Below are positions 2,098 through 23,197 of a DNA stretch of 64,000 nucleotides, in pieces; the stretch's first letter is position 1; every line of letters starts with the position of its first letter. The notes beneath the pieces were generated by a model. The model ran no database searches. It saw nothing but the letters and a program-made list of their open reading frames with translations, and was not told where the DNA came from. This DNA is from an uncultured Muribaculaceae bacterium (lineage in GTDB: Bacteria; Cyanobacteriota; Vampirovibrionia; Gastranaerophilales; Gastranaerophilaceae), in NCBI GenBank assembly GCA_964453315.1, contig CAYVSD010000003.1, positions 8,689 to 72,688 on the forward strand, given 5' to 3'. Made by a program: the position numbers and the translations under genes.

Positions 2098-2500
2098 GGG
2101 GACGTTTTGGATTAGACAGGACGTTTTGGTGAATATATGCGGCGAGTCGGAGCGCTGTTCTCCGTTACAAACGAGCAAAACAAATTAAATGCTAACAATG
2201 TAATTAAAGCAGACTTTTCAAGAGCAGCAGCAATCGCTGCCTAAGTCGAGCTTCTTAGCTACTTGTAAAGCCCAGCTTGCCGGTTTTATGAGTCCATTAT
2301 GCAAGCGGCAGTGTGTCACAGGCTAAGTAAACACATCAAGCTAACTTGGCAGAGTTTAGTGTTTCTCTCAAATAAAACCTTTGATTAATTTAACGGGTTT
2401 AGACATTTTCCTGAATTAATCGAGAAAAAAATTGCCTACACTCGTAGAAGTATATATTTTCCCGTTTTGGACGTGGGTTCGACTCCCACCGTCTCCACCA
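2098..2500 (+). ncRNA. ssrA: tmRNA (transfer-messenger RNA)
   Basis: 5' GGGGACG pairs with 3' CGTCTCC followed by ACCA, including the G3:U pair. T-arm is GTGGG-TTCGACT-CCCAC. Resume codon GCT at 2191 opens the tag frame ANNVIKADFSRAAAIAA with TAA at 2242-2244. Confidence 0.92.
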
Positions 2501-2543
2501 TTTAGTTCAAGATGCATAGCCTTGACCAAATAAAAACAAAATA

Positions 2544-2568
2544 AAGCCCGTATTATCGGGCTTTTTTG
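2544..2568 (+). terminator. Intrinsic terminator after ssrA
   Basis: AAGCCCG-tattat-CGGGCTT followed by TTTT. Confidence 0.7.
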
Positions 2569-2672: not shown

Positions 2673-5000
2673 CTAACCATCAAAAAATTTATCATCCATT
2701 ATAAAAGTAGGATATAATTGATAATATGCATTTTTCTCTGCAATTTTTTTATAACGTTTTAATACGGTTAGATCATAATTTGTGTTATAAATATATTTTA
2801 CGCTTTTTCCATCAAATATACCTAAAACTCCATACCACAGAAGAAAATCTGTCAATTTATCCCAATCTTCTTTATCTATTCCTTCGTAGTTATATATATC
2901 ATTCAATAATTGTGTATCTAAAATTGATTCTCGACCAATAAACATAAATAAGGCATCTTTTACTTTAGGTAAAACATCTCGAATTTCTCGACTAATTTCT
3001 TGAATTATATCGTATGAAAATTGTCTTATACCTTCTAAAATATCATCTTCTAAAATTTTTTCATGACCTCTATTTATGGCAACACCTATACAATTTTTTA
3101 CGCAATCAATTAATGCCCTTGGCCTCATTAATGTTCTATCAACTATATATTGAAAGCTGTCTTCACCTTTTACAAGATTTACGCATATACTACTCCACAA
3201 GGATTTAAAGTCGCATTCCTCATTTAATTCTAAGCTATAATTAAGTCTTTTCTTAATTACTTCCGCTAAAGCCTCAGTATCAATCCAGTCAAGCAATACT
3301 CGAGCTTCTTTACCTCTATCTGGAGTATAATCAATTAATAATTCATATACATCATTTCTTAAAAATATAACCGCTTTACATTCAACGTCCTTATTACTCA
3401 ATTGTTGTTCAATTTTTCTTGATGCATCCAGTAATGTTCTTACAATTATTAAATCTTCTTTAGATAAACCATCTGTATTCCAACCTTTATCTATATTATC
3501 AAATAATATCCATACACTTTCTTTATATTTCAAATATTGTTGTAATATATTTTTTAATTCTCCAATGCTGTGCTTATATATGATTTCTGTCACTTCGGCA
3601 TTAGATAATCTGACATTTTTCTTATCTCCAAATTTTATTTTAATTTTATCTATTATGCTATTTGTTATATATGAGAGTCTTTCTGAAAAATCTCCCTCTG
3701 CAGAATAATCACCACTTTGGTATATTCCCAATAATTTTGGATATAATTCCAATAAATCTGGATTTCTATAGTATATAAGTTTATCTTTTTCTAAGATTTT
3801 ATATGCAATCTCTAACAATAATACATATTCCCAAAACGCAGTGAGAGTATGATTATATGTTCCCTCTTGCATGCAAGTAGTAATTGTCTCCTTGAATTTT
3901 ATTAGTTCATAACTTTCAGGTTTTAAATCTAAAACAATATTTCGCTTATTTTCTCGCAATTTATTTCTTACTTGTGAGAATAAAGCTGTTTTACCCGATC
4001 CTTTTCGACCACAAACTATTCTTGCTTCACCTCGTAAAACTCTATTGTATTGATCTGTTTTAAAATAATAATTTGGCAAATTTCTAAATTCATTTTCCGC
4101 TGCAGATGAACCTAAATCAATTTCTTCTAATTTAGACTTTTTTTCTGTAATACTGTATGGTTTAGTTTTTTGCAAACTTTCGACAACATAATTTGCCATC
4201 TCAGAAATGGCTTCATCTATTTGGGAATCACTGAGACATTCTTTAACTACTTCACGTAAATCTAAAGATACATCACAAGATTCGATTTGAAGTATAGATA
4301 TATTTTTATTCATACCCATTGCTAAACCTGCAATAAAAGATGCACGGATATTATGATTAAAGGAATCGTTATAAATTTCTGGCAACCAAGATACAATAAT
4401 TCCAATCGAATTTGCAACTTGTTTAATTACATCTGTAGGGGACATTCTATATGTTTCTTCAGGATCAAAACTTCTATAAAATATTTTAGATTTTTTGATT
4501 CTTGAAGCTATTCTTATACTTTTATTTGTTTTGCAAAGACTATCAAGCAAAAATATCGGAGCTTCATTATTGATTTCATTTTCATCAAAACGCAAATTTG
4601 TTCTATGGTTTACAGAATTTATACATTCTAGAATATTACTAGTATTTGAATACTCTGTATATCCTATAGTATCAAAAATTCCTATATCTTTTATCTTTTC
4701 TTTTGTTGTTTCATTTATTGCTTTATTGCTTACTAATATTATATTTTTTCTTTTCGCAATTGCGTATCCAATTTCAAAAACAACATTATTATTCAAAACT
4801 GAAATATCTGCAATAAAGTCTTTCGAATTTTCAATTGCTTCATACACTTCTTGATTAATACTATTCCCCAATATATTAAGTTGTGACCAAGTTCTTATAG
4901 GGATATTGGATTTAACGCTATTCAAAGGTTCCAATGTTTCGCCAATAATACCTGGGGATGAAGCATATGCAATAAAATGATATTTCTTTTCTTCAACCAT
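2673..5000 (-). CDS. Two tandem nucleoside 2-deoxyribosyltransferase-like (TIR-like flavodoxin-fold) domains fused to a P-loop NTPase
   Basis: 775 aa. Domain 1: FIADISVLNNNVVFEIGYAIAKRKNIILV, the NDT-like 'aD...N.NV.fE.GyA...K' pattern. Domain 2: IGIIVSWLP...HNIRASFIAGLAMGMNKNISIL. Walker A is CGRKGSGKTALF and Walker B-like is VWILFDNIDKGW, followed by a long helical C-terminus. Confidence 0.6.
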   Translation of the reverse strand: MVEEKKYHFIAYASSPGIIGETLEPLNSVKSNIPIRTWSQLNILGNSINQEVYEAIENSKDFIADISVLNNNVVFEIGYAIAKRKNIILVSNKAINETTKEKIKDIGIFDTIGYTEYSNTSNILECINSVNHRTNLRFDENEINNEAPIFLLDSLCKTNKSIRIASRIKKSKIFYRSFDPEETYRMSPTDVIKQVANSIGIIVSWLPEIYNDSFNHNIRASFIAGLAMGMNKNISILQIESCDVSLDLREVVKECLSDSQIDEAISEMANYVVESLQKTKPYSITEKKSKLEEIDLGSSAAENEFRNLPNYYFKTDQYNRVLRGEARIVCGRKGSGKTALFSQVRNKLRENKRNIVLDLKPESYELIKFKETITTCMQEGTYNHTLTAFWEYVLLLEIAYKILEKDKLIYYRNPDLLELYPKLLGIYQSGDYSAEGDFSERLSYITNSIIDKIKIKFGDKKNVRLSNAEVTEIIYKHSIGELKNILQQYLKYKESVWILFDNIDKGWNTDGLSKEDLIIVRTLLDASRKIEQQLSNKDVECKAVIFLRNDVYELLIDYTPDRGKEARVLLDWIDTEALAEVIKKRLNYSLELNEECDFKSLWSSICVNLVKGEDSFQYIVDRTLMRPRALIDCVKNCIGVAINRGHEKILEDDILEGIRQFSYDIIQEISREIRDVLPKVKDALFMFIGRESILDTQLLNDIYNYEGIDKEDWDKLTDFLLWYGVLGIFDGKSVKYIYNTNYDLTVLKRYKKIAEKNAYYQLYPTFIMDDKFFDG

Positions 5001-5049
5001 GCTGCAATTATATCACATTTGCTTATACAATGAAAATTTTAACTAAAAC

Positions 5050-6666
5050 TTAATTATTTGAAACATTTATAAGTTGCTGCAAACTTAGTATTTCTGCTTG
5101 TGTCCCATTAAGAATGTGTTCTGTTAAATCAGGTGAAATGTATTTGAGGTTCAGGATATTTCGTATATATTTTGAATCTTTAAGGTTTTCTTCTTTTTGT
5201 AAATCTTCAATTGTTTTGCCATTGTGAATTTGCTTATGGTAATAATAGCTTTTTACAAGTGCATTTACCAAATAAGGATTTGGTTCAGGTGTATCGTTTT
5301 CTTTGGCATTAAGTATAAGAATATTTCCAGTCTTCGAGGGTTGAGAAATCCTTATCGATTTCTTAATTGTAATTGGTTCAGTATCTTTCCTTTGAGGAAT
5401 CAACATAATTTTATTGCCTCGATTTATAATTAATAATACCTCTCTTATATTCTTTGCATCATAAGTTATTTCAACATTTTTATCCGAAACAACAACTTTG
5501 TTTACTACAGATCTTATTAGTTTAGGGTTTTCGTAATCTTCGATAGTTTGGGCAACCTTTAGAAGTTCAATTTGTTTATTAACATCAAAGCCAGAAAGCA
5601 TTTTTTGCATCTGCTTTTTATTTTGTAAAAGTTCTTTGGTGGTTAAAATCACAAACTTTTCAATTTCTCCGGCAGGAATTTTAGAAACAGAACCTGCCGT
5701 TAGCTTACTGTATTTTTTAATAGCCTGACTTACATAATATCGGTAACGTCTTTTGTGGCTTGTGCTATGTGATGGCGTCATTTTGTTACCTTTGTCGTCA
5801 AATATCATACCTGTCAATAAAGAATTTGAGGAACATTTTGTTCCGCAAATTTTATCAACTTTGTTCTCATACAACAATTTTTGCACTCTTTCAAAAGTAA
5901 TTTCATCAATAATACCTTTATGTTCACCATCATAAACATTGTCTTTATGTACAATTTTACCGATATAAACTTTGTTAGAAAGCATATGGTACAACTGTCC
6001 TTTAAAGAAATATTTATCTGATTTGGTTTTAATATTTTCTTTCTCAAGCCAATCTTTTAGTTTTGGAACACTCTTTATTTCCAAATACTTATCAAAAATT
6101 AGTTTGACCTTTTGAGCATCTTTTTCTTCTATAACAAGTTTTTTATCTTCTTTCTTGTAACCAAGCGGAGTGCAACCACCCATCCACATCCCCTTTTTCT
6201 TTGATGCAGCAATTTTATCCCGAATTCTTTCTCCGGTAACTTCACGTTCAAATTGCGCGAAAGACAGAAGTATATTTAATGTTAACCGACCCATTGAAGT
6301 TGTGGTATTAAATTGCTGCGTTATGGATACAAAGGAAGTTTTATGTTTATCAAAAATCTCAACAATTTTTGAAAAATCCATAAGTGAGCGTGTTAAACGG
6401 TCAACTTTATAAACAACGACAATGTCTATTTTATCGCCTTCAATATCTAATAAAAGCTCTTGAAAAGCCGGACGATTCATTGTTCCGCCGGAATAACCAC
6501 CGTCATTGTATTCTTTTTCAATAAGCATCCAACCCTCATGCATTTGGGATTTTATGTAAGCTTCACAGGCTTCCCTTTGAGCATCAAGAGAGTTAAAATC
6601 CTGCTCCAATCCTTCTTCGGATGATTTTCTTGTATATATTGCACAACGAATTTTTTTCTTATCCAT
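5050..6666 (-). CDS. Large serine recombinase (resolvase/invertase catalytic domain plus recombinase extension)
   Basis: 538 aa. AIYTRKSS (catalytic Ser region), VVYKVDRLTRS, and E-helix FAQFEREVTGERIRDKI. The long C-terminal extension is typical of large serine integrases. Confidence 0.85.
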   Translation of the reverse strand: MDKKKIRCAIYTRKSSEEGLEQDFNSLDAQREACEAYIKSQMHEGWMLIEKEYNDGGYSGGTMNRPAFQELLLDIEGDKIDIVVVYKVDRLTRSLMDFSKIVEIFDKHKTSFVSITQQFNTTTSMGRLTLNILLSFAQFEREVTGERIRDKIAASKKKGMWMGGCTPLGYKKEDKKLVIEEKDAQKVKLIFDKYLEIKSVPKLKDWLEKENIKTKSDKYFFKGQLYHMLSNKVYIGKIVHKDNVYDGEHKGIIDEITFERVQKLLYENKVDKICGTKCSSNSLLTGMIFDDKGNKMTPSHSTSHKRRYRYYVSQAIKKYSKLTAGSVSKIPAGEIEKFVILTTKELLQNKKQMQKMLSGFDVNKQIELLKVAQTIEDYENPKLIRSVVNKVVVSDKNVEITYDAKNIREVLLIINRGNKIMLIPQRKDTEPITIKKSIRISQPSKTGNILILNAKENDTPEPNPYLVNALVKSYYYHKQIHNGKTIEDLQKEENLKDSKYIRNILNLKYISPDLTEHILNGTQAEILSLQQLINVSNN

Positions 6667-7111
6667 TGGCTACTCCAAAGAACTTTTTACCGTTCCAATG
6701 AGTACCGGTTATGACATTTGCAACCGCAGAAAGAGTTTTATATGTTTGATCTTTGTATTGAAAACCGTTTTCTACGGCAGTTACTTCATATTTTTCACCT
6801 TTATATTCGCGGATAAATTTTGTACCAAAGGTTACTTCAAAATTCCTGATCTTTTTAACATTGATTGACTTTGTTTTTTCGTAATCGCTAACAAGCAAAT
6901 CCAGTTTATGTTGCAGGTCATTGGGCAAACTTTTATACTGTTCTTGCCAAACAATCTCCTTAATTAGGTAAGATTTTGTGTAACCTTTAGGGGCAGAATA
7001 TCCAAAAACTTGCAGATATTTTTGTTCAAGTTCTTGTTTTGATAGAGCTTTATAATCAATAATTTTAACTTGCATACTCACATTAATCGCTCTTGTAGCA
7101 AGCTTTTTCAA
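6659..7111 (-). CDS. DUF2924-family protein (frequent partner of large serine recombinases)
   Basis: 150 aa. The C-terminus YKTLSAVANVITGTHWNGKKFFGV matches the DUF2924 signature (SLSaiA..ITG..WsG..FFG). It overlaps the recombinase start by 8 nt. Confidence 0.7.
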   Translation of the reverse strand: MKKLATRAINVSMQVKIIDYKALSKQELEQKYLQVFGYSAPKGYTKSYLIKEIVWQEQYKSLPNDLQHKLDLLVSDYEKTKSINVKKIRNFEVTFGTKFIREYKGEKYEVTAVENGFQYKDQTYKTLSAVANVITGTHWNGKKFFGVANG

Positions 7112-7140: not shown

Positions 7141-8733
7141 TTATGGATTAACAATTAATTCATCATAAAATTCCTGCAGGTGATTTTTATATTTTTTCAA
7201 TTTCCTGATTACGCGAACAATAATTTGCCTAATACGTTCTTTTGAAACACCATACATTTGTCCAATTTCATCAAGTGTCCATTGAGTTCCATCTTCAAGC
7301 CCATAACGTAGTTTTATAATTTTGATTTCTCTCTCTGACAAGGCTTTTTCCAAAATAGCATTTATTCTTGTTTGTAATTCATCAACTAAAATTTTATTAT
7401 TTTCTTTTTGACGATCAATGCTATAATTATCAAACTTTGTATGATCCAAATTATAAGCATCCTCAAGTCCTAAGGTACATGTTGGGGATTGAAATAATTC
7501 TTCAATTTTTTCTTCTGAAATACTTAATGCATTTGCAATTTCTGCACAGGTAGGTTCTTTACTATATTCTTGAATATAATTGTCTTTGAAGATAAAAATT
7601 TTTCTAAATAATTCATTTATATGATGTGGATAATGAATCATTTTACCTTTATCAGAGATGGCTCTACTTATAGAATTTTTAATTAACCATGTTGCATATG
7701 TTGAAAATTTGTAACCTTTAGTATAATCAAATTTGTTAATTGCTTTTATTAGACCTATGTTACCTTCTTGTATTAAATCTGAGAATGATAGGCTTTTTCT
7801 ATAAATATATTTTTTAGCAATATTTATTACAAGTCTTAAATTGGCACAAATTAAAATATCTTTTGCTTGTTCTGATAATTCTGCATTATCTAAATCTTTA
7901 AAAAACATTGGTTCAAGATTTGTATCTAACATTGGGTATTTACATATTTTTTCCAAATACCAATATATTGAATTCTCAGTTAAATTACTTAATTGTTGAT
8001 TATATAAAGCAAGTAACTTTTCTAAGGAATATTTTCTTGCTGCTTCAATCAGTTCTTCTTCTACCTTGTCTATACCAAAATCTTCTTCATTTTGCAGATC
8101 GTATTCTTCTATATTAGAATAGGCAGTTTCTTGTTTTTGAGGAAGAGATTGCTCTTTTATCGTGGGGCTAAATATATTTTCGAGGCTAATTGTTTTAAGT
8201 TTTTTGATTTCGTTATCATCAATATTTTTACATTGAACCTTTATCATATGAACGGATTCTAAGACATCTTTATCCACATCTAATTTGTTTGGTCGTCTTT
8301 TAGTGTAAATTATATTTAAAAACGGGCCTGATACAATACTTATAATTGTTGGATAAAGAATTTGCTTATTAATTTCTGTAGCTATTTGTTTAAGTTCAGT
8401 ATCATTTAGCAAACCGTTTAATTTAATAGTGATAAATAATAAAGATTTTTGAAAATCTTCATCTGATGAAATGTTTAGAATTTTTTGAATATCCTGATTG
8501 GTTACTTGAAACAAAAATGCAGCATTCACCCAACGATTTATCATTGCTTTATTTTTATCAAGATTTGGAAAAGCACTTTCAAATGCTTCTATCGTATTTA
8601 GATTTGGAATACGTCTATTAGTAGGATAACCAAGAGATTCGAACAATAAAAATGAGTTTTCAACAAAATTATTGTTGAAATATAGAAAATTATTTAATAT
8701 ATTTTTTAATTTATCATTTGTAACTGTAAGCAT
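7141..8733 (-). CDS. Sigma-70 family factor (regions 2-4) with an extra N-terminal domain paralogous to the N-terminus of the adjacent methyltransferase
   Basis: 530 aa. Region 2: [41 protein letters not shown]. Region 4.2: [19 protein letters not shown]. The N-terminal ~190 aa align with aa 20-190 of the 1220-aa protein ([13 protein letters not shown] / [13 protein letters not shown]; AAFLFQV / AQFLFEL; [11 protein letters not shown] / [11 protein letters not shown]). Confidence 0.8.
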
Positions 8734-8741
8734 AATTTTGC

Positions 8742-11700
8742 CTATATAGTATAATTATTATATTCCTGTTCGGACATTGAGAAGTTTGGATCTATGACCA
8801 TAATCTCATTATAAGTAAGCTCATAGAGTTTATAAATTATTGTGTCTATATTATCTTCTAAATTTTTTATATTTTGCTGTTTTATATTATCTATGTTTGA
8901 ATTTATATCTTTTAATATCTCTAAAATCTTATCAACCATTTTAATAATATTTTCTTGATTTGTTACTTCTTTTGGTAAAGGGAATGACTCTAATTTGGCA
9001 ACACCTATATCAACTCCAGTTCCTCTTTTTTTGCCATTTTTATAAAACCAATTTAATGCAAATTTAGAATTTAAAATTGCTAATATTGTTTTAATCGAAT
9101 AATCTGAATTTACTCGCATAGTAATTATATTTGAAGACATCCCAAAATAACAATTTTGTGTATCATAGCCTACTTTGTTTACATCAAACATAGAGGGTAT
9201 AACTAATTTTTCTTGTTCAAAGAATTCTTGTTTCCGTGGCCAATGCAAGTGAAACCATTTATTTGAGCCTTTTATAGTTTCTCTACGATTATCCATTATA
9301 ACTTTATACTTATACAAATGATTTTTTATATTTGGATAATTATCAATATTCACACAATTTTCTTTTGTTAAATATAAAAGGTATTTCCCATCAGATTTAT
9401 TATTTACAGAATATTTACTAATAGCATTCTCTTCCAAAAATAATTTAACAAATTTTTTTTCATCACTATTTAAATTTATTTTATTTAGCTCATCTTTAGT
9501 TAATACAAATACCCCAGCATTTAAATTAAATCCATATTTCTCAGAATTTTTTTTATTTATTTTGTCTGGATTTTGAACAACACCTTGTACAACATTACAT
9601 TGGCTTGATAATTGTATAAAATGTTCATTAAAGTTTTGATTTTGCTCTAATATAATTTCATTATTAATATAGATACTTTTATTGCTCAGAGGAACTGTTA
9701 GTTTATTTTCATTATCATCCTCTTTATTTATATACATAACATCGTTCTCTAATTTATGATATTGAAATATCTCTAAATCTTTTGAAATATTTTTACGGTA
9801 TGTCGCAATCATGTGATAACCAGCGACATTATCAAAAACTTTTAATTTTCCAATGTCTACAAAATCTACAAATGATAAATTTTCTTTTACATCCATTATA
9901 AGTTTTTTTGCACCTGTGCTATTCAACCAATATCTTGATGTTATAAAGGATATTGTGCCATTATATTTGGACAATTCGATTGCTTTATGTAAGAAATAAT
10001 ACCAAAAATCCATCTTTCCTTGATGATATTTTTTCCCAAATACAGATATATTTACGGGTTCAAATACTTCTTTATGGTCTCTTTCTTTTAAATATGGTGG
10101 ATTGGCAATAATAATGTCAAAGCTATCAACATTAAACATCCATTTTGGATTAAACCATTCAGAAGAATAATCTTTATCATAAGGGCTCCATTGGGCAAGT
10201 TTTGCAGCTTGACCTAAATCAAGATTTAATATAACTGCTTCCTGTTTGATTTGTTCTCTTATTTTTTCATCTTGTGTTTTTAGATTTTCTTTTCTTTGGC
10301 TTGTATTTGCCCTAAAATACCCCTCTCTTATTTTTTCTAATTTCTTTTTGAGTTCTATAATTTTAGGTGCTTGTGCAAACAAATTATTTTCATTCAAATC
10401 TATCAAAGTATTAGCCGCAACGAATTTAGTTTCAAGGTTCGGAAGTGCCAAGATACCCATATTGTCTTTGTCCTTATCCACTTTTTCATCAACAATAAGA
10501 GAAATAAAAAATCTTAATCTTGAAATTTGTGTTGCCATTGGCTGAATATCAACCCCATATATGCATCGTTGAATTAAGTATAATTTTCTTGAATAGTCCA
10601 TCTCATTGTCATTGAACTGCTTTTCAATGATTTTAATTGCTTCTTCTCTTGCTTCTATATCATCAATTTGGCTTGCTTTGTCTAGTTGGGATTCTTTCCA
10701 CTTCTCATTGTGAGGATCTAATTTTGATAAGACATGAACTAATTTATGCAATAATCCCATAGGGAAAGCACCAGAGCCACATGCAGGATCTAAAATTTTA
10801 ACTTCATTTACTGCTTTTATCAGTTCATCAACTTCTGTTTCATTGAATGAGTGTTGCTCAGAATAAGACAAAAGTTCCTCTAATTTATCGTCAATATTTT
10901 CAATATTTAAACTTTCCACCTTAGTTTTTAAGTAGTTGATTAAAGATTGTTCACACATATAATCAACTATTTCACGAGGGGTATAATATGAACCTGTAGA
11001 TTTTCTCGCGGTTGTTTTTGTTTCAGGGTTGTGTGCAGCAAGTAAATTTTCAAAAACACGTCCCAAAAGTTCAGGATCTAATGCAATTTCTTCTTCCACA
11101 GGTGTTGTTTCATCAATAGTGAATTTATATGAGTTTAATATTGTAAATAAACCCTTAACCTTAGCATTTTTATAACTTCTATTTCCGTCAAAATGTTCAG
11201 ATAAATCAACAACTTTTTCATCTTTCATAAAGAAAATGTCATCAGGAATTTTTAGGAAGTTTTTGGAATCATTGTCGGTAAAGCAATCTATATATCTGCC
11301 ATTCCTTTTTTCATCCGTACATTCAAACAACCCACCATTCAAGAATGGTATATCCTTAAACAAATCAATTATATCTTGTGGATTATTCAGATATTTTCTA
11401 TAACGGAATAAATTATTTACATCATAGCCTGCATTTAAGTTATTATATCTATACTCTGGTCTAAATTCTCTTCTATCCATTGGTTTTGACAAACAACCAA
11501 AGAATAAATTTTGAAGTACAACTTTATAATACAAATCTCCTTGTTCTCGGTATTCAGGTTTTAACAGGTCTAAATAGGTCTGTTTATCAAAAACTTTTTC
11601 ACTAACTAAACCTTTTTCTTTGATAAACCAATCAAAGATAATTCTTGTAACCATTCTAATTCCGAACATTATATTATCTTTGTGGGTGTTGTCTTTCGAT

Positions 11701-12404
11701 AATTGGCAAGTATCTATCATCCAGAAAAACCAATTAGAAAGTTCTGTATAGAATTTTTTGTTTAATTCAGATACACTTAGTGCTTTCAACCAATTTAAAT
11801 GCAAATCAACAAAATTTTCTACTTTTAGATTTTTAAATGCAATATCTTCTAAAATATCAATATGTGCTCTGTGAGGATTACTAAAATTTATGTCCTTAAT
11901 CAAAACAACTTTTTCCAATACATCTTTATTTTCATCTTTTTTGTTTAAACGTCTGTCAATAATAGAAAAAGTTAGCTTATCAGCATATTTAAACAATATA
12001 AAAGCAGGAATTGTACGAACTTTATTAACTTCTCTTGTAATATCTGAAAGTTGTTTTTTAGAATATGTATCACCTTTTAATTCAATAGCATAAAACCAAT
12101 ATGTCTCAATATCTTTATCATCGATTCTGCCACCTGTAATTTCTGTTTCCTCAGAATTTAAATCATTGGGCTGTAATTCAAACAAAAATTGTGCATCTTT
12201 CCAATGGGAGTATAATGCTTTATCTTCATTTAAGTTATTTAACAAGAAGCGACCTTTAAAATCTTCAATAGAACTAACTGCAATTTGTCTTTTGGTTGTA
12301 TATCCAAGTGTAGAAAATAGCTTTAAAGCTGATTCTAAAATGGTATTATGTCTAAATTTTAATATGTCTGATTTAATCTGTTGTTTTAGTTCTTTATTCT
12401 CCAT
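8742..12404 (-). CDS. Type IIG/IIL-like (MmeI/Eco57I-family architecture) fusion: PD-(D/E)XK-like N-domain + N6-adenine DNA methyltransferase + C-terminal specificity-like region
   Basis: 1220 aa. D98-x9-E108-x-K110 ([13 protein letters not shown]); motif [12 protein letters not shown]; Eco57I-family helix [19 protein letters not shown]; motif IV IIANPPY. About 430 aa follow NPPY. Confidence 0.8.
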
Positions 12405-15400
12405 TAATTTTCTCCATCAATTATCAACCAAGTAATAAGCTCAAAATCATCATCCGATTTAACTTGCTCATCAATAGTTGGAATTACTCCTCCCCTACCT
12501 TGAAATGCAGATACCATATTGTTTTGATAAAATTTTGTAATTCCGCTTACGGCAGATTTTAATAATTTACTATATAAATTCATACCCTCCTGTGTTTGAA
12601 TTTGCTCATTGAATTTATTACATAGGTCTACAAACGGTTCTTTTTTACCTAAACATAGAGCTTTATAAATATCTAAAATTTCTCTTGATCTTTCATATGT
12701 ATATAAGACTTCACCATCTTCTTTTACATACACTAAATAGTAAGGTTGCAATTTATTTAATTTTGAGTTTTCTGTCGATGAATTTTTCTGTTTTAGACAG
12801 AAAATAACTCCGCTTTGTGCTATTACTTGCCCATTATCGTCTTTATTAGGGGTCAAAGCACAAATTCCAATTGGCATATTTTTCAAATCATCTTTTCTTG
12901 TTTCCATGAAATTAAACAAATCGCTTTGGAAGTCTTCAAGAGAAAAATCTGACATATTTATATCTTGAATAGAGTTATCAGTATCTTCTAAAGGCTTTTC
13001 TTCAATAATTTTCTTCAATTGTTTTTCACGATATGTTAAATCTCGTTTGATAATTTCCTCAGGGTCTTGATCTTCCAACAAAGGATTGTCATCGGCAGTA
13101 GCCGATGCATCTGCCAAAATCATCCTGGCCTCAACTCTATTTCTTAATTGAATGTAGGATTCTAAATCCTCGGTAGGCCAAAAGCAAATCATTTGTATAT
13201 AATCATTTAAACTGCCAATCCTATCAATACGACCAAATCTTTGAATTAGTCGTACAGGATTCCAATGTATATCATAATTAACAACTGTATCACAATCTTG
13301 CAAGTTTTGACCTTCTGAAATACAGTCTGTACCTATTAAAATATCAATTTGATCATTCCCTGTTCTTTTTTCTCCAAGTTTTGAATATGGAGAAAAGTTT
13401 TCCAAAATATCATCAAAATTATTTAAATTTTTGTATGTAGATTCTGTATCTTTACCTGATACAAGTGCAATATTTATATCTAATGTGTTTTTTACATAAT
13501 CTTTTAAGCAATCGTACAAATATTTTGCAGTATCACTGTATGTAGTAAATATTAATAATTTTTTGTTGTTTTGTTTTGATTTATCAGTAATAATATCTTT
13601 CAATTCAGACAATTTTTTATCACGTTCTTTGGTAACAGTTCTTGCCATGTTGTAAATTTTTTCAACCTGAATCCTATCAATTAACAATTCCTTTTTCCAT
13701 TTCTCTACATCTAAATCTGCTAAACTATATTCCATTTTTTTACCAACAACAAACTCATTATCTGCTATTTCTTGATCGTCTATAAAATCATCAGAATAGG
13801 CATCATCAGTTGAAATTGTAGAGTTAGTTTTGTTTTGAATATATTTATCAATTAGGACAATTCTACTATCAATCTTATCTAAGGTATTTTTCATTGAGAT
13901 TGTGAAAGATGCAATAGAACTTTCAAGACGTTTTAGAAAACCCATTTTCATCATACCAATCAAATAATTTTCACGTTTTTCCTGCGTCATAGTTGTATCT
14001 TTTTTTGATTGATATTTCTCATGATTTTTTACAACATATAACGAAGGTCTAAATAAGTATAATTGGTATTTAAGAATTTCGTCATTTATCTCTTTATAAC
14101 TTGGGAATTTATTTTCAACATCTATTGATGGAGTCTTTGTTACAGGATTCTTTCGTTTAGGGAAATTTAAAGAACTCTCGTCTTTTAAGTTAATATAACC
14201 TGATTTAATCTGTTTTCTTGATCTTGCAATTGTTAATTCTTCCAATAGCTTGAAAAAATTAACATTTAAATTATTTAATAAGTCGTTTTTATTTCTGTTA
14301 TCATCTTTCGCCCAATCAAGATACTTCTTATTTGCAACTTTTATAGCTCCTTCAATACTAGGAATCTGTATTGATTCGGCAAAAGCCTTATCATCTCCCA
14401 ATGAAATAAAATTTATTTGGTTCTTTAAATCATTTAAGGAAGTATTAACAGGTGTTGCTGAAAGCATCAAAACCATTGGATGTCTTTCGCCGTTCTTAAT
14501 TATATCAAGTAATTTATCATAACGACTAATTCTTAAGATATTACCTTCTTTGTCAGTTTTACTACCAGTTGCATTTCTAAAATTATGAGATTCATCAATA
14601 ACAATTAAATCAAAATCATTAAATTTTATTTCTTTATCAATATCCTTAGCAGTCAACATTGATTGAGATAAAAACTTAATTCTTAAATTATCGTCCTGAA
14701 AAATATTTTTAGGATGAAATTCCTCATAACGTTTCCAGTTATTTTCAAGTCTTTTTGGTGCTAAAACTAAGCATCGAGTCTTACCTTTACATATTGCATA
14801 TTGAATAACACCTAAAGCTGTAAAAGTTTTACCTAAACCAACACTATCTGCTAAAATGCAGCCATTATATTTTTGTAATCTCCGCCATATAGAGTTGACG
14901 GCGTCTTGTTGGAATGGGTATAACATATTCCAAATTTTTGTTTGTGTAAATTTTTTATTTAGTTTTACGTCTTCAACGTCATTTGTATCTAATTTTTCTT
15001 CAAATAAATGGTATAACGTCTTATAATACACTTGTTCTGGCGAATTTTCTTTATATATTGCTTCTATATATGATAAAATTTCTTTCTTAGCATCTTCAGT
15101 ATTTTCTGTCCATAAGTCATTAAACCAATCTTTTAAATCTTTTTTGCCATTATCGCTATCAATAATGGTATTTAATTCGTAATTAGAACAATCATTGATC
15201 CCTAATCCACAAGTAGTAAAATTTGAACTTCCAACGATTGCGTCAACAACACGATCATTATGTTCCTGTTCAATATGATACATTTTACCATGTATTAAAG
15301 TTTTTTTATTATCTTTTTTGGGAGCTGTTCTAATTTCTATATTACTATTTTTTAGCCATTCATAACAGTCTTTAGCAATTTTATTTTGCTTTAATACATT

Positions 15401-15697
15401 ATTTAACGTAATATCTTCATCTTGTATTTTAAAAACTCTAAATCGTTTATTTTTAATGCCTAAATTTTCAACTGACGAAGGTTCGCCTAAAATAAATTTT
15501 ACTTCTGAAACTTTATTTTTTAATTCATTACGTAATGCATAAAAGGCATATATAGTAAAATAAGCAGAAACGATTTTTAATTTGGATTTATCATTATACT
15601 TATCAAAATTATTATTTAAAACTTCTTGCAAAAAACTATAAACGGTACCGTATTTTGCGTTGTCTTTAATACTTGATCTATTTTTTACTTCCTGCAT
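12404..15697 (-). CDS. PLD (single HKD) nuclease domain fused to an SNF2-family helicase
   Basis: 1097 aa. HKD: LIHGKMYHIE...AIVGSSNFT. SNF2: ADSVGLGKTF, VIDESHNFRN, LSATPVNT, DIHWNPVRLIQRFGRIDRIGS. Its stop overlaps the methyltransferase start (TAATG at 12402-12406). Confidence 0.85.
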   Translation of the reverse strand: MQEVKNRSSIKDNAKYGTVYSFLQEVLNNNFDKYNDKSKLKIVSAYFTIYAFYALRNELKNKVSEVKFILGEPSSVENLGIKNKRFRVFKIQDEDITLNNVLKQNKIAKDCYEWLKNSNIEIRTAPKKDNKKTLIHGKMYHIEQEHNDRVVDAIVGSSNFTTCGLGINDCSNYELNTIIDSDNGKKDLKDWFNDLWTENTEDAKKEILSYIEAIYKENSPEQVYYKTLYHLFEEKLDTNDVEDVKLNKKFTQTKIWNMLYPFQQDAVNSIWRRLQKYNGCILADSVGLGKTFTALGVIQYAICKGKTRCLVLAPKRLENNWKRYEEFHPKNIFQDDNLRIKFLSQSMLTAKDIDKEIKFNDFDLIVIDESHNFRNATGSKTDKEGNILRISRYDKLLDIIKNGERHPMVLMLSATPVNTSLNDLKNQINFISLGDDKAFAESIQIPSIEGAIKVANKKYLDWAKDDNRNKNDLLNNLNVNFFKLLEELTIARSRKQIKSGYINLKDESSLNFPKRKNPVTKTPSIDVENKFPSYKEINDEILKYQLYLFRPSLYVVKNHEKYQSKKDTTMTQEKRENYLIGMMKMGFLKRLESSIASFTISMKNTLDKIDSRIVLIDKYIQNKTNSTISTDDAYSDDFIDDQEIADNEFVVGKKMEYSLADLDVEKWKKELLIDRIQVEKIYNMARTVTKERDKKLSELKDIITDKSKQNNKKLLIFTTYSDTAKYLYDCLKDYVKNTLDINIALVSGKDTESTYKNLNNFDDILENFSPYSKLGEKRTGNDQIDILIGTDCISEGQNLQDCDTVVNYDIHWNPVRLIQRFGRIDRIGSLNDYIQMICFWPTEDLESYIQLRNRVEARMILADASATADDNPLLEDQDPEEIIKRDLTYREKQLKKIIEEKPLEDTDNSIQDINMSDFSLEDFQSDLFNFMETRKDDLKNMPIGICALTPNKDDNGQVIAQSGVIFCLKQKNSSTENSKLNKLQPYYLVYVKEDGEVLYTYERSREILDIYKALCLGKKEPFVDLCNKFNEQIQTQEGMNLYSKLLKSAVSGITKFYQNNMVSAFQGRGGVIPTIDEQVKSDDDFELITWLIIDGEN

Positions 15698-15793: not shown

Positions 15794-16633
15794 CTATGTA
15801 AAAACAATATTCTGAGCTTGATTAAAAACCTGTTTAAACATTTCATTTTTATCTTCATTTTCAGATATAGCAAAAATTATATTTTCGAAGAATTTTTCAT
15901 ATTCTTCAGTGTATAAGACATCAAAATAGTATTGTATTACATCTTGTGTAAAATTCTTAATATAGTCCAAAACTCTTAAAATCAACGTTTTGTATCCATA
16001 TAAAATGGCAATATTAAACAAATTTCTTATTTTATTTTTCACTAGTATTTCAATCTCAGTACTTTTTGTTTCGGACACAAAATTATTTTTATAAGGTCCA
16101 GGAATTGAAATTATGCTTACTAAATAAGGATTTTTAAGAAGTTCGCAAGAAGAATTGCGAAAAACACAAACATTTTTACTTAATAACATGTAATTAGAAC
16201 AACAAGCCAATTCTCTATTATTTCTGTTATATTCATACATGTCGTGAGCTTTTGCCGAACATAATGATTTATATAAAGTGCTGTTTCGGCAAAATGATTC
16301 TTCTTGATTTCTTATGCCAGACCAAAAATTCCCTCCAGGGTTTGTTGCACTAGCAAAATTTAAAACCAAAGGGTTATCATAATTTTTTGCAGATTCCAAA
16401 ACATCTGAATTCATTACAACATAAGCAGGTTTATTATTTAAATCTTTTTTATTTTTCAATTTTGCGGAAATAACATTTGAAACAAATTCTAATGTTTTTG
16501 GGGTAAAAAGAGTAACTTGGCTGTAATTCTCTTTTGGTAATTGAATAATCTCCCCGTTTAATTCGTAATACCCAGCATCAGTAATCTTAATTGTTTCAAT
16601 ACCGATACTAATAAGTTCCTTTCTGCGTAACAT
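15794..16633 (-). CDS. TIGR02452-type (microbial PARG-like) macrodomain protein
   Basis: 279 aa. LVLNFASATNPGGNFWSGIRNQEESFCRNSTLY matches the NFAsa.nPGGG...G..aQEE.lCR.S.LY signature, with a GGG->GGN variation. Confidence 0.65.
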   Translation of the reverse strand: MLRRKELISIGIETIKITDAGYYELNGEIIQLPKENYSQVTLFTPKTLEFVSNVISAKLKNKKDLNNKPAYVVMNSDVLESAKNYDNPLVLNFASATNPGGNFWSGIRNQEESFCRNSTLYKSLCSAKAHDMYEYNRNNRELACCSNYMLLSKNVCVFRNSSCELLKNPYLVSIISIPGPYKNNFVSETKSTEIEILVKNKIRNLFNIAILYGYKTLILRVLDYIKNFTQDVIQYYFDVLYTEEYEKFFENIIFAISENEDKNEMFKQVFNQAQNIVFT

Positions 16634-16659
16634 ATAAACTCCTTAAACTTGAAACAAAT

Positions 16660-16959
16660 CTAATAGTTATAATATCCCTGTCTGTTGCCATTAAAATCGT
16701 ATACATTTACTCCCGTTCCATTTGATTTAGGAACTGCGTATCCTCTTGGATTTCCACTATTGTCATAAATTAAATTTGCATTTGGATTGTTTGGGCTGTT
16801 GCTCCAATTGAATGGACTATTCTTCCAGTTATTGGAACTGTTTTCCCAATTTGCCTCACTATTGTTCCAATTGTTCGGGCTGTTTTCCCATGTTGTGAAA
16901 GCTTTTGTCATTTGCTGTACTCCTATTAAAATTATTAAAGCAATTAAAATCTTTTTCAT
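16660..16959 (-). CDS. Small secreted protein with Asn/Trp heptad-like repeats
   Basis: 99 aa. Signal peptide MKKILIALIILIGVQQMTKA, then WENSPNNWNNSEANWENSSNNWKNSPFNWSNSPNN (NWxNSxx repeated about 5 times). Confidence 0.55.
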   Translation of the reverse strand: MKKILIALIILIGVQQMTKAFTTWENSPNNWNNSEANWENSSNNWKNSPFNWSNSPNNPNANLIYDNSGNPRGYAVPKSNGTGVNVYDFNGNRQGYYNY

Positions 16960-16972
16960 ATAAATCTTTTCT

Positions 16973-17941
16973 TTATAAAGCCAATAGTTCTTTCATAATA
17001 CGTGCGTGTTTTTTTGCTTTTTGAGTGTTGCCGAGTTTTTTATAACAGATTTCAAGCTTTTCGTGCGCTTTGTAGTTATAATCCTGTATCTCTAAAATAT
17101 TTTCAAAACAGTCTATAGCCTTTTTATAGTTAAGTTCGTTCATATATGCCATTCCGAGTTTGAAATATAATTTTTGAACATAAGAATGGTATGAATTTGA
17201 AGAATAAAGTATTCCCTTTTGTTCATTATAGTACTCATCTATATATTTATATGCCAAGTCATATTCACCATTATCAATAGCTTCATTTGCCAACTTCGCT
17301 TTTTGCATGCGGAATTTTGGCATCTTTATAATATCATTACGAGAATCTTCAACTCTTTTTATCCACGCTTGAACATTATTATTCTTTTTTATTTCTTTCT
17401 TTGCCAATAAAGTAGTAACAGGACTTGCGATTTTACAACCTAAAATATATATTCTTTTGTTATTTGCAAAGTAAGGCTCTGTATAACAATTTTCCTTTAT
17501 CTGCGAATATAAAATGTTATAGTCGTAATCAGTGTTATCGAAAATTTTTAAATAATTTATAGCCTCATCATAGTGACCTATAGTTTCTAATACAAAAACC
17601 CACGACAATTCTAAAAACTTAAAAGGAGTATTATTGTTTACAATATTCCTGTTTGTTGCAATATGTCCTGTTATATTGTTTCTTGTATAAATTTTATTTT
17701 TGTCCGAATTGTTTTGAATGTTATATAAAGTATTGTAATCAGGAAAATTATATACAAATATTACTTTATCTGAGCAAGTGTTAAAATATTTATGAGCATA
17801 TTGAATATTTCCGACACTGCAATTTTTAACTTTAATCGGTACCGTCATATACCAACTCAATAACAGAACACCGAAAACAGTTCCGAGTATAACAACCCGC
17901 TTTTTAAATAAATCTTTAATTCTTTGCAAAAAATCTTTCAT
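16973..17941 (-). CDS. Membrane-anchored TPR-repeat protein
   Basis: The ORF track extends to 18004. The ATG at 17941 has an AAGGGA Shine-Dalgarno and leaves the repeated operator-like motif (17989-18003) upstream. One TM helix (VVILGTVFGVLLLSWY). C-terminal TPR-like repeats (AIDCFENILEIQDYNYKAHEKLEICYKKLGN). Confidence 0.55.
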   Translation of the reverse strand: MKDFLQRIKDLFKKRVVILGTVFGVLLLSWYMTVPIKVKNCSVGNIQYAHKYFNTCSDKVIFVYNFPDYNTLYNIQNNSDKNKIYTRNNITGHIATNRNIVNNNTPFKFLELSWVFVLETIGHYDEAINYLKIFDNTDYDYNILYSQIKENCYTEPYFANNKRIYILGCKIASPVTTLLAKKEIKKNNNVQAWIKRVEDSRNDIIKMPKFRMQKAKLANEAIDNGEYDLAYKYIDEYYNEQKGILYSSNSYHSYVQKLYFKLGMAYMNELNYKKAIDCFENILEIQDYNYKAHEKLEICYKKLGNTQKAKKHARIMKELLAL

Positions 17942-17988
17942 ACAATATCCCTTTCTGTTCATTACATGAAAATTATAAAATATAACTG

Positions 17989-18003
17989 TGCCAAAATTGG
18001 ACA
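17989..18003 (-). promoter_or_regulatory. Operator/promoter motif copy 3 (TGCCAAaatTGGACA)
   Basis: One of three 15-mers fitting TGYCAA-N3-TGGACA. On the minus strand TGTCCA-N3-TTGGCA is followed 11 nt later by TATAAT. Confidence 0.4.
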
Positions 18004-18006
18004 CCC

Positions 18007-18981
18007 TTAAATTTGTTTAATTGCTTTATCTAAAAGTTCTTTATAAGTATCTTTCAATTCTTGCGGCTCAAGGATTTTTACATTTTCTCCCCAGCGGAAA
18101 AGGTGCCAGCAGATTTCATATCTCCCGCCTGCTTCAAAAGTAACGGTTGTTGTGTCGTCAGGATTAACCTTTAATTTCTGAGTTGGGTGCAAATTATAGT
18201 CCTTAATTGCGTCTTTGACATCCTTTGAAAACAACAGCTTTATCTTCATTGGTTTTTCCTGATAAACTCCAAACGAATTTTTTAAATAGTCCTTCAAGTT
18301 GAATTTTTCATCTTTGTCAAAATATTCATCCAAAACTTTTGGTTCTTTGATTTTGTGTAAAAGATAGTATCTAAGTCCTTGCTTTTTATCGTTGTAACCA
18401 AGCAAATATGTCTTTTCACCATAAATAATCCCATATGGTTGAATCTTTAATTTTGCGACTTCTCCTTTATTGTTTTCGTAGGTAAATTCAAGATATTTAT
18501 AGGATTTCAAAGCATCTGAAATAACATTCAGTGTATTAAAATTCATCTTGTATCTTGGGTGTTGACGAACTGCATAACCTTCAACTTCCAAAAGTGCTTC
18601 GACATCTGTTTCAACTGATTTCGATTCGTTAATCATATTAATTTTAGCCATTATTTCCGATAATAAATCACAACGATTCGTGTAATTTAGGTTTTTCATC
18701 ATAGATTTGCAGTTTTCAAGTTCTGCAATTTCTTCCGCGGTAAAAGAAATCATTTTATTTAACGGAGTTTTATTGAGTCGCCATTTTTTTATTCTAGAAA
18801 GAGGGTTTTCAACTTCTTCCATACTCGGGAAAAGTCTTTCAACAGCATCCTTCATACGGATTGCAGTTCGTCGTGAAACCTCAAATTCATCCATAATATC
18901 CTGAATTGAGAATCCCTGATAGCTATTTTGCATATCTATTGCAAGTCTTAAAATATCTTCAACACGGTCATATCTTGGCAT
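18007..18981 (-). CDS. WYL-domain transcriptional regulator (HTH-WYL-WCX architecture)
   Basis: 324 aa. N-terminal wHTH (FSIQDIMDEFEVSRRTAIRMKDAVERLF). WYL-like core (TYLLGYNDKKQGLRYYLLHKI). The C-terminal domain ends WGENVKILEP. Confidence 0.75.
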   Translation of the reverse strand: MPRYDRVEDILRLAIDMQNSYQGFSIQDIMDEFEVSRRTAIRMKDAVERLFPSMEEVENPLSRIKKWRLNKTPLNKMISFTAEEIAELENCKSMMKNLNYTNRCDLLSEIMAKINMINESKSVETDVEALLEVEGYAVRQHPRYKMNFNTLNVISDALKSYKYLEFTYENNKGEVAKLKIQPYGIIYGEKTYLLGYNDKKQGLRYYLLHKIKEPKVLDEYFDKDEKFNLKDYLKNSFGVYQEKPMKIKLLFSKDVKDAIKDYNLHPTQKLKVNPDDTTTVTFEAGGRYEICWHLFRWGENVKILEPQELKDTYKELLDKAIKQI

Positions 18982-19023
18982 AGTTAAACTCCTTTTTTAT
19001 ATTATGATTATAAGCTGTAACTA

Positions 19024-19038
19024 TGTCAATTTTGGACA
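19024..19038 (-). promoter_or_regulatory. Operator/promoter motif copy 2 (TGTCAAtttTGGACA)
   Basis: Lies 43 nt upstream of the WYL gene start. On the minus strand TGTCCAaaaTTGACA is followed 11 nt later by TATAAT. Confidence 0.45.
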
Positions 19039-19040
19039 CA

Positions 19041-22000: not shown

Positions 22001-22094
22001 AAGTTTTCCCAGTTCCAGGACCTGCCAAAAGCATCACAGGGCCGTTTAATATATCTATCGTTCTTTGTTGATTTTCGTTTAGTGTAATCGCCAT
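19041..22094 (-). CDS. UvrD/PcrA-type SF1 helicase fused to a C-terminal Cas4/AddB-like PD-(D/E)XK nuclease with a Cys cluster
   Basis: 1017 aa. Helicase: AGPGTGKTF, LVDEYQDTN, VGDDDQIIYGFQGA, TYHGSKGREFEYVYL, VGITRAK. Nuclease: GCPRKFFY, GKIDRIE...LFDYKTG, QLCFYKYA, CKFCAYKQLC. Confidence 0.85.
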   Translation of the reverse strand: MAITLNENQQRTIDILNGPVMLLAGPGTGKTFTVIHRIEKMLEQGVKPSSILCLTFSDAAANEMRQRLIKKMGVIATSVDIYTYHSFCNDLIKLYPSQFDLAVGIRLINGTEKISLMRECIDEIKLQYFVPTRGDRYYFTKNFIDYIEKLKSKRITKDKYLACIETNPTLMPRLKEVESEIYEREQRGETRNKTRYTEIEKIKNNIEKAKELWNLYELYSKKMIEHNLIDFSDMINFVLDEFENDKAFLREVSNKYRYFLVDEYQDTNDSQNSIIFNLVDANEEKNIFVVGDDDQIIYGFQGAKLDSIENFLIKYPQTEVICLKENNRSTQSILDFSYEVISQDENRLENNKKFQDKNISKKLTAKNPKITPLDKKVRNLHFGDSLQEMNHIVEEIQNLVNSDSCPKNENGEKDLSQIAIISKKRPELQSYAEMLKGKNIPFQIDEGKSIFSIRSSILLYFYMKALDNYLLSSDKLFGLLLSEPFKLDLEDYNRILHEKQLYKKDESNDFISLMRNLDGWKNPQKIEEFLANFKYLQEFSATNQLRETVVEIVNRTGILEAFYKEEKNRMENLMGIKKIIEEATEFGNLDFTRSLGDFVKYLDDCWNNEIDITTDKNTIIQNAVQLTTYHGSKGREFEYVYLPNLISRNWEDFTMPGEYKLITEEVLDKDEAQSKKNTELLKLLFVGITRAKHALTISFADKEGDRANQLTKYLLNLSNYDFDSRTYEYNEDDFTAEFFRSLSRDVYDNQVAFKSEIQERVEKLELSLSRMNDYIGCPRKFFYTKILGIDVEDADWDNANFGTVIHKILENAVKYAKEKGDYPATEEITREFNKLLDTQRFTSEASKEKFEKAGLAVIEGYYPIFKQTPIHMVEDIEFSFRGVEVDGDLITGKIDRIEKNKDGTYSLFDYKTGYYATENKIALGQEKEGYYNQLCFYKYAFEKFSGKKVAHTGIIFVEYPNKSVYKELDASDMEYIENKIKETFKNIKELKFEPIRETRDGACKFCAYKQLCRLDLI

Positions 22095-23189: not shown

Positions 23190-23197
23190 GTGTTACA

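Follow-up and report, generated by a model that had tools for sequence, protein, structure and literature searches.

What is the function of a 775-codon gene that stands first after ssrA, on the flank of a block of defense genes, and is followed from genome to genome by no constant companion? The gene lies near one end of a 64,000-nucleotide stretch of contig CAYVSD010000003.1 (assembly GCA_964453315.1), which we analyzed as a whole and call the window. A preliminary description, drawn up from the sequence by itself, had taken it for a single-gene candidate in which two domains resembling nucleoside deoxyribosyltransferase (NDT) precede a P-loop NTPase. We consider it probable that its product is an immune protein of the "NTPase-gated effector" kind, complete in itself and horizontally mobile, and hold with about the same confidence that it is an NTPase-gated toxic effector in the sphere of defense or conflict. 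In its most specific form, the candidate is a predicted anti-phage effector encoded by one gene, an N-glycosidase that would be gated by an ATPase. The general logic proposed at the outset, a nucleotide-processing domain of flavodoxin fold joined to a P-loop NTPase, has held up, with a first domain that is NDT/DNPH1-like, a conserved glutamate, and a gene that is mobile.

The open reading frame (ORF) is intact, starts with ATG and occupies exactly 2673..5000 on the minus strand, and its translation contains all four strings quoted in the preliminary description, ADISVLNNNVVFEIGYAIAKRK (aa 64-85), HNIRASFIAGLAMGMNKN (aa 216-233), GRKGSGKT (aa 331-338) and ILFDNID (aa 498-504). A homologue search that covered 5.8 billion proteins returned 2629 relatives, the best 120 of which are all full length (about 775 aa) with 43-78% identity and E values from 0 to 1e-205, so that this is no chance reading frame. 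An alignment of 32 diverse homologues has a mean column identity of 61% and many invariant residues.

Three lines of evidence bear on the nature of domain 1. The Pfam family PF05014 (Nuc_deoxyrib_tr) matches 18 of the 32 diverse members at E <= 0.01, the best of them at 2e-5, and a domain-1 profile compared with all Protein Data Bank (PDB) sequences found Rcl/DNPH1 at E = 6e-4. An AlphaFold2 (AF2) model of aa 1-295 (mean predicted local distance difference test score (pLDDT) 91.1, predicted template modeling score (pTM) 0.89) has a flavodoxin-like three-layer fold resembling that of solved NDT/DNPH1 members. Foldseek searches with this model retrieved DNPH1 (8rpt_A, probability 1.00, TM-score 0.57 on the target) and the CMP N-glycosidase BcmB (4jen_B, probability 0.98), the aligned domain (1 or 2) being unspecified in both cases, together with several TIR domains, TIR-STING and flavodoxins; against viral structures the same model gave mostly two-Rossmann glycosyltransferases at a root mean square deviation of 14-20 Å, which is uninformative. 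Together these family, profile and fold matches place the predicted domain 1 in the NDT/DNPH1 ("DrHyd") superfamily, within the clade that Burroughs, Aravind and colleagues have described as TIR-DrHyd-SLOG (PMC9503650).

The alignment with Rcl/DNPH1 puts E76 of the family motif NVTYEIGYA on the Glu of GVGYELGRA, the two sharing (G/T)YE(L/I)G.A, and places this Glu where NDT/DNPH1 members have their catalytic glutamate, in a conserved motif of the helix that follows the third strand. In DNPH1 it is the catalytic nucleophile. The near-invariant residues of domain 1 are W38, G45, D65, N70, N72 and E76. No TIR threshold (PF01582 / PF13676) was reached, TIR_2 appearing in 3 of the 32 members with a best E of 1e-3, and the other TIR-type matches were weak as well (CAP12-PCTIR_TIR at E 0.075 for the window protein; ThsB1 at E 0.7 for the domain-1 profile against the PDB).

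The preliminary description had seen NDT/TIR-like signatures in tandem, which stands for domain 1 on the PF05014 and Rcl/DNPH1 matches and fails for domain 2. In the AF2 model of the N-terminal part, domain 2 has the same predicted beta-alpha-beta, flavodoxin-like topology as domain 1. Aligned locally with hhalign, the two domains meet at E ~0.1 over 30 columns, with I223 opposite E76, and this is the resemblance that had been noticed originally; in global mode hhalign gave no match, and on these two results we dropped the idea of a demonstrable internal duplication. The domain-2 profile found chance-level matches only among PDB sequences, and a Pfam scan of aa 141-285 found none. What domain 2 shares with NDT/TIR domains is thus a predicted topology, the sequence signature being not above chance, and because it lacks both the catalytic Glu and significant similarity to domain 1 or to solved structures, the term "tandem NDT" is half right. 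The domain has a conserved signature of its own, F178-D179-P180-x-E182-x-x-R185 (FDPxExxR) with N217, F222 and G225, which was retained in every variant examined.

The remainder of the protein, some 350 aa of which had been set apart as a separate helical sensor, is better described as one unit. The NCBIfam model NF047389, "P-loop ATPase, Sll1717 family", matches aa 296-743 on its positions 1-432 of 454 with 298.7 bits where the cut-off is 75 (E 9e-89), which amounts to formal membership. With the AF2 model of the whole protein (mean pLDDT 83.9, pTM 0.58), Foldseek retrieved archaeal Cdc6/Orc1 (1fnn, 2qby, 2v1u), eukaryotic ORC subunits, TnsC, RuvB and the plant TIR-NLR RPP1, the TM-scores of the ORC/Cdc6-type matches being modest at 0.37-0.51 on the target. 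The model has the features of an ORC/Cdc6-like protein, an AAA+ core, a lid, a C-terminal winged helix and a helical insert before Walker B. Proteins of the Cdc6/Orc1 type likewise end in a winged helix. By profile and predicted fold, then, aa 296-775 form a single Sll1717-family, ORC/Cdc6-like AAA+ module with insert, lid and winged helix. The STAND/KAP-type NTPases invoked at the outset do not fit, the ATPase being neither of KAP nor of classical NACHT/NB-ARC type: among STAND families (NACHT / NB-ARC / Avs-type) we obtained only sub-threshold matches (NPHP3_N at E 0.096, nSTAND_NTPase5 at E 0.21), and no TPR, LRR or WD40 sensor repeats were found in the protein, which ends with the winged helix.

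Conservation runs through every part of this module. The linker that leads into it has the invariant residues G297, A301, E302, N303, E304, Y311 and Y312, and in the ATPase itself K337, D501, N502, D504 and R548 are invariant, the last of which, at the end of the strand 540-548, we read as the sensor-1 position in the model. Given that Walker B has D-N instead of D-E, the analogy with Walker B mutants of AAA+ proteins suggests that ATP binding may matter more here than rapid hydrolysis. The helical insert follows the strand at aa 355-359, precedes that of Walker B and carries the strongly conserved motifs HTxxAFWEYxLLLE and EGDFSER, R626, P627 and R628 of the lid are invariant, and so are W722 and G727 of the winged-helix-like domain.

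The variation within the family distinguishes between the parts. A search of aa 1-290 against 1.84 billion representative proteins gave 955 matches at E <= 1e-3, 535 of them at E <= 1e-10. Most of these are proteins of ~775 aa or fragments, but in four longer ones an additional enzyme precedes both domains and the ATPase. P0200 (1063 aa) begins with a Peptidase_C14 caspase of the cyanobacterial "EACC1-associated" type, as seen from its homologues and precomputed Pfam assignments, its head giving no match to PDB sequences; P0220 (1147 aa) begins with SIR2_2 (ThsA and KomC at E ~1e-4), P0221 (1047 aa) with PNP_UDP_1 (MTA/SAH nucleosidase at E 5e-11) and P0260 (1144 aa) with Metallophos (Rv0805 at E 4e-7). 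We aligned 270 family proteins to the family hidden Markov model and found E76 kept in 261 of the 265 that have a residue there. The exceptions are one protein of ordinary length and the caspase (A), SIR2 (I) and PNP-like (Q) fusions. These three fusions also lack W38, and they keep D65, N70 and N72, the domain-2 invariants and the ATPase motifs. We read W38 and E76 as the predicted active site of the weapon, dispensable once another weapon has been added, and domain 2 with the ATPase as the putative constant sensor and switch; that an effector domain has been added where the Glu was lost is a genetic argument that separates the one from the other. An NTPase chassis on which SIR2, caspase, PNP-like and TIR/DrHyd heads are exchanged is the signature of prokaryotic conflict systems (PMC7159879).

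On the contig of the PNP-headed P0221 (JGI sample 3300059473), the gene adjoins those of a 1125-aa PNP_UDP_1 + HD_3 protein and of an Exo_endo_phos nuclease, which suggests a cluster of conflict genes.

A working order for these parts can be proposed. Domain 1 would be the toxic effector, an N-glycosidase that probably cleaves NAD+ or a (deoxy)nucleotide, as NDT-like retron, TIR and SIR2 effectors do. In the resting state the enzyme would be held inactive. A phage-derived trigger, probably recognized by the conserved helical insert, the lid or the winged helix, would promote ATP-bound oligomerization of the AAA+ module and so bring the NDT-like domains into an active arrangement, whereupon an essential metabolite (NAD+ or nucleotide) would be depleted and the infection would abort. 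Enzymes of the NDT and DNPH1 types form obligate dimers, in which the active site is composite. Given that they need a dimer partner for a full active site, domain 2 may act as a built-in pseudo-partner or lock.

The distribution of the family is that of a mobile gene. Relatives occur in at least 468 genomes in a scan of one genome per species, spread patchily over Pseudomonadota, Bacteroidota, Acidobacteriota, Verrucomicrobiota, Planctomycetota, Gemmatimonadota, Desulfobacterota, Myxococcota and Cyanobacteriota with ~45% identity between distant phyla. The closest, at 71-78% identity, are in metagenome-assembled genomes (MAGs) of Candidatus Gastranaerophilales, and the window probably derives from a gut member of this order; gut metagenomes from bovine, sheep, pig and goat sources contain the gene sequence. 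Similarity to the loci of the three closest relatives is confined to the gene; the nucleotide identity of 72-78% ends near its borders, and the flanks are unrelated and lie beside different tRNA genes. Full-length copies are found on 15 plasmid records, from Mesorhizobium, Rhizobium, Paraburkholderia, Ochrobactrum, Ensifer, Bacillus mycoides, Rhodococcus, Leptolyngbya and Leptospira. Eight IMG/VR viral contigs carry the gene, in several cases near a contig end, with neighbors that match integrase, CI-like repressor, endolysin, tail and primase PHROGs, and a phage genome collection gave only two weak matches, to the ATPase only. Distantly related to the ATPase (20-24% identity over aa 296-730) is a 698-aa Tn3-family passenger on ~220 enterobacterial plasmids; one example, an "ATP-binding protein" on the Klebsiella plasmid CP067564.1 (locus L081, 5968-8064), adjoins a resolvase.

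We compared 80 loci with 10-kb flanks and found no conserved neighbor gene, the largest neighbor cluster being present in nine loci; three neighbors upstream and eight downstream lie within 50 bp on the same strand. The original view of the gene as a single-gene candidate is borne out by these counts. By Pfam, six tyrosine integrases and two resolvases are among the nearest neighbors, as are PIN, Fic, KfrA, Rep3, IstB, BrxA, Abi_2 and HsdM.

A gene that travels in this way could also serve its carrier, as a weapon or addiction module of an island, plasmid or prophage that excludes competing elements or kills cells that have lost it. The PIN, Fic, KfrA and Rep genes among the neighbors would fit such a role, as would the Tn3 passenger and the finding of the gene always as mobile cargo, on plasmids, in prophages and on the recombinase island. 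No antitoxin-like partner is conserved beside it in the 80 loci, however, and many chromosomal copies have no evident element nearby, and we regard this explanation as unlikely, albeit the strongest of the alternatives. Given that defense and competition between elements overlap mechanistically, it differs from an immune role mainly in who benefits.

The fold of the ATPase raises a different possibility, that of a DNA-directed base-excision enzyme in which ATPase and winged helix load onto foreign or modified DNA and the NDT-like domain removes bases from it or from modified nucleotides, much as DNPH1 acts on hydroxymethyl-dUMP. By fold the ATPase comes closest to AAA+ proteins that load on DNA (Cdc6/Orc1, DNA-bound TnsC), the closest solved relative of domain 1, DNPH1, is annotated as a 5-hydroxymethyl-dUMP N-hydrolase, and Anantharaman et al. 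proposed DNA-acting NDT domains in Abi-like proteins (PMC3710099). Yet the insert, the lid and the winged helix are net acidic across the family, the profile scan of the window protein found no nuclease or DNA-binding family, and the swapped-in SIR2, PNP-like and caspase heads imply small molecules or proteins as targets and not DNA. Such an enzyme seems to us improbable.

We give no more credit to a role in signaling, in which domain 1 would make a second messenger from NAD+ or a nucleotide and so address an unlinked effector, or domain 1 or domain 2 would bind a nucleotide signal that switches the ATPase, instead of the protein being a depleting effector itself. The TIR-DrHyd-SLOG clade includes enzymes that generate signals as well as sensors with no catalytic activity (PMC9503650), and the conservation of domain 2 and of D65, N70 and N72 even where E76 is absent would suit a ligand-binding scaffold. 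There is, however, no conserved partner gene to receive a signal, and the loss of E76 and W38 exactly where an enzyme has been added fits an effector role better. Least probable, and already disfavored, is a housekeeping enzyme, a regulated nucleoside 2-deoxyribosyltransferase or deoxynucleoside monophosphate (dNMP) hydrolase of nucleotide salvage, for which the first of these names, given to homologues in some databases, and the kinship of domain 1 with DNPH1 would speak, but which is at odds with the patchy spread over many phyla at ~45% identity, the different genomic position in the three closest relatives, the carriage on plasmids and prophages, the fused 480-aa ATPase switch and the caspase and SIR2 variants.

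Several observations weigh against the preferred reading of an NTPase-gated immune effector. No model of PADLOC-DB v2.0 matched the protein, the best E values being 1.1e-3 for a TIR effector (50 residues) and 2.4e-3 for PDC-M28C; this also agrees with the preliminary description, which had recognized no named system. The window protein itself scores 18.2 bits with PF05014, below the Pfam gathering cut-off of 28.8, so that with 18 of 32 members matched the relatedness is at the level of the superfamily and is not family membership, and D80, the general acid in DNPH1, has no conserved equivalent here, the residue at its place being V52 by our count along the alignment. The association of Glu loss with fusion (three of the four fusions and one of the 261 others; Fisher p = 5e-6) is overstated in its independence, since P0200 and P0221 are closely related cyanobacterial proteins, and there may have been only two independent losses among the fusions. 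The acidity of the insert, lid and winged helix argues against an ORC-like sensing of DNA by the ATPase, which we do not favor. Many neighbors are ordinary metabolic genes. Among the neighbor families listed (the first 25), by our own count, ~13 of 137 nearest neighbors match defense models of PADLOC (including SoFic, PDC-S04, QatD, BrxA, dGTPase, AbiD, type I MTase and DrmD), as do ~10 of 134 second neighbors (including QatC, BrxB, ThsB, PD-Lambda-1 and CapH), a proximity to defense genes that is suggestive and, as a tally with no background set, is no measured enrichment. None of the RNA runs searched contains the gene. Lastly, the substrate, the trigger and the oligomerization we infer throughout for this protein.

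The systems that come closest differ in how the effector is controlled. Retron-Eco1 (Ec86) and the type II-A retrons use an NDT-like flavodoxin-fold domain as the toxic output, as predicted here, and the activity of the Ec86 effector depends on its dimer (10.1101/2023.08.16.553469). In the retron, however, the effector is one of three parts and is controlled by reverse transcriptase and multicopy single-stranded DNA (msDNA), whereas our protein has a fused AAA+ controller and a second, degenerate flavodoxin-like domain and no reverse transcriptase or noncoding RNA; no sequence-level match to retron effectors was obtained. In the single-protein immune sensors of TIR- or SIR2-NTPase type (Avs proteins, bacterial NACHT proteins, TIR-NLRs and plant TNLs such as RPP1), an N-terminal flavodoxin-fold effector that cleaves NAD or nucleotides is likewise followed by an oligomerizing P-loop NTPase, a helical domain and a winged helix, effector domains are likewise swapped within a family, and RPP1 is among the fold matches of both halves of our protein. 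Unlike in these, the ATPase is NF047389 Sll1717 with no NACHT/NB-ARC match and no TPR, LRR or WD40 repeats, and the effector is NDT/DNPH1-like and not TIR, TIR_2 being weak and present in 3 of 32 members.

DNPH1/Rcl is the closest solved relative of domain 1 by profile, with its catalytic Glu at the place of E76, but it is a small, stand-alone, homodimeric housekeeping enzyme, and the family has, with no conserved counterpart of the general acid, its own W38, D65, N70 and N72. Swarozyc, a DUF4062 TIR-like NADase, is an experimentally validated single-protein defense that depletes NAD+ on sensing a phage protein (10.64898/2026.05.01.722283); it too fuses a TIR/NDT-related domain with a catalytic Glu to an auxiliary domain, which however is a helical stalk and not an ATPase, and our protein has no DUF4062 match. 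Fusions of DrHyd, TIR and caspase domains to NTPases are known from conflict systems (PMC7159879, PMC9503650). The iSTAND/VMAP systems (Kaur et al. 2020) share with our family TIR, DrHyd or caspase domains N-terminal to an NTPase chassis, and the caspase of P0200 is of the cyanobacterial "EACC1-associated" type (PMC7159879); they are multi-gene (ternary) systems with vWA-MoxR partners, in contrast to a family with a different ATPase and no conserved partner. The ORC-CDC6-like ATPase of the Tn3 passengers (PF24389; PADLOC candidates PDC-M28C / PDC-M36A) is a distant kin of ours and likewise mobile cargo beside a resolvase, but its ATPase is N-terminal, it has no NDT-like domains and a different C-terminal domain that resembles PDC-M36A, and it is itself only a candidate.

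The protein stands outside the TIR/SIR2-NTPase and retron systems, though it would work like them, and is a formal member of NF047389. New is a family with no PADLOC-DB v2 model; known is the logic of an NTPase-gated effector. Our literature search found no paper on the Sll1717 / NF047389 family, and on NDT-like defense only retrons, Swarozyc and comparative-genomics surveys turned up. More tentatively, and with clearly less confidence than we place in the general reading, we propose an unrecognized, widespread anti-phage system in which an ORC/Cdc6-like switch and a degenerate pseudo-partner gate an NDT-type N-glycosidase, the substrate being perhaps a nucleotide (dNMPs, deoxynucleoside triphosphates (dNTPs) or phage-specific modified ones) and not NAD+, on a chassis that could be re-armed with caspase, SIR2, PNP-like or phosphoesterase heads. 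If the prediction of an immune role holds, a large family, counted in at least 468 species genomes and in 955 representative clusters (50% identity), spanning many phyla and including gut Melainabacteria, joins the bacterial immune systems, and with it an immune weapon of NDT/DNPH1 type beyond the retron effectors, the first such under the control of a fused ATPase. Its kinship with DNPH1 and TIR-NLRs would bear on the evolution of nucleotide-cleaving immune modules in bacteria and eukaryotes.

Table 1. Features of the gene, its parts and its surroundings, in coordinates of the window
Feature	Position	Strand	Basis
ssrA (transfer-messenger RNA, tmRNA)	2098..2500	+	ARAGORN; Rfam RF00023, 137 bits
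Bidirectional terminator-like hairpin between ssrA and the gene	2543..2564	both	terminator scan
Whole gene, 775-aa NDT-like / flavodoxin-like / Sll1717-type ATPase protein	2673..5000	-	ORF list, homologues, AF2 model
C-terminal winged-helix-like domain, aa 691-775	2676..2930	-	AF2 secondary structure; Foldseek to Cdc6/Orc1
Helical lid, aa 571-690, invariant MRPR (aa 625-628)	2931..3290	-	AF2 model
AAA+ nucleotide-binding core, aa 326-570	3291..4025	-	NF047389; Foldseek
Walker B ILFDNID, aa 498-504	3489-3509	-	motif in AAA+ core
Helical insert of ~130 aa, aa 363-492, candidate trigger-recognition surface	3525..3914	-	AF2 secondary structure
Walker A GRKGSGKT, aa 331-338	3987-4010	-	motif in AAA+ core
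Linker, aa 286-325, invariant G-x3-AENE and YY	4026..4145	-	NF047389 match starts at aa 296
Domain 2, flavodoxin-like, aa 145-285, I223 replaces catalytic Glu; predicted regulatory / pseudo-dimer partner	4146..4568	-	AF2 topology, invariant motif
Domain 1, NDT/DNPH1 (DrHyd)-superfamily, flavodoxin-like, aa 1-135; predicted N-glycosidase effector	4596..5000	-	PF05014, PDB profile, Foldseek
E76 codon, predicted catalytic glutamate (FEIGYA)	4773..4775	-	alignment to Rcl/DNPH1 catalytic Glu
Promoter-like site TTTTCA, 18 nt, TG-TATAAT	5007..5036	-	consensus scan, 10/12 matches, extended -10
Large serine recombinase	5050-6666	-	Pfam Resolvase, Recombinase, Zn_ribbon_recom
DUF2924 protein	6659-7111	-	Pfam DUF2924
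MzaA-like sigma-70 protein (region 2/3/4)	7141-8733	-	PADLOC / Pfam
Type IIG-like methylase (Eco57I-type, 1220 aa)	8742-12404	-
HKD+SNF2 helicase	12404-15697	-
PARG-like protein	15794-16633	-
WYL-WCX regulator	18007-18981	-
UvrD + PD-(D/E)XK protein (GajB-like)	19041-22094	-
DUF3800 protein	22370-23143	-

The gene and ssrA are convergent (Table 1), and the gene is the first after ssrA, as had been described from the start. The promoter-like site, a consensus match only, stops 6 nt upstream of the ATG, and no Shine-Dalgarno sequence is visible before the start codon; the transcript may have no leader.

Directly upstream of the gene, the serine recombinase and the DUF2924 protein form a mobility module (5050..7111), and the genes that follow make this a ~20-kb defense island on a recombinase-borne element beside ssrA, of which our gene is the outermost member. 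The genes at 7141-15697 (-) look like a restriction-modification- or DISARM-like trio with its own sigma-factor-like protein. We found no repeat of the ssrA 3' end that could serve as an attachment (att) site, with up to three mismatches allowed, and the segments 2440-2700 and 22000-24600 have no word of at least 12 nt in common. The absence of an ssrA-derived direct repeat at the far end is as expected for a serine recombinase. With no att repeat found, the far border of the island is only approximate, and we place it at ~23.2-23.9 kb, where strand and GC skew change.

Some smaller observations concern the same region. The MzaA-like sigma-70 protein and the adjacent methylase share an N-terminal domain of ~175 aa (32% identity, E 2e-15), and a TPR gene is also among the island genes at 15794-23143 (-). 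At its far edge (23160-23217) the island has 59 nt that are 81% identical to positions 13285-13341 of locus L003 from a related MAG; there they lie 1 kb downstream of the homologous gene and are the sole similarity outside it, and they may be a shared element border or a regulatory site. Farther along the window, positions 30888-50186 (-) are taken up by a single ORF for a giant protein of 6432 aa.

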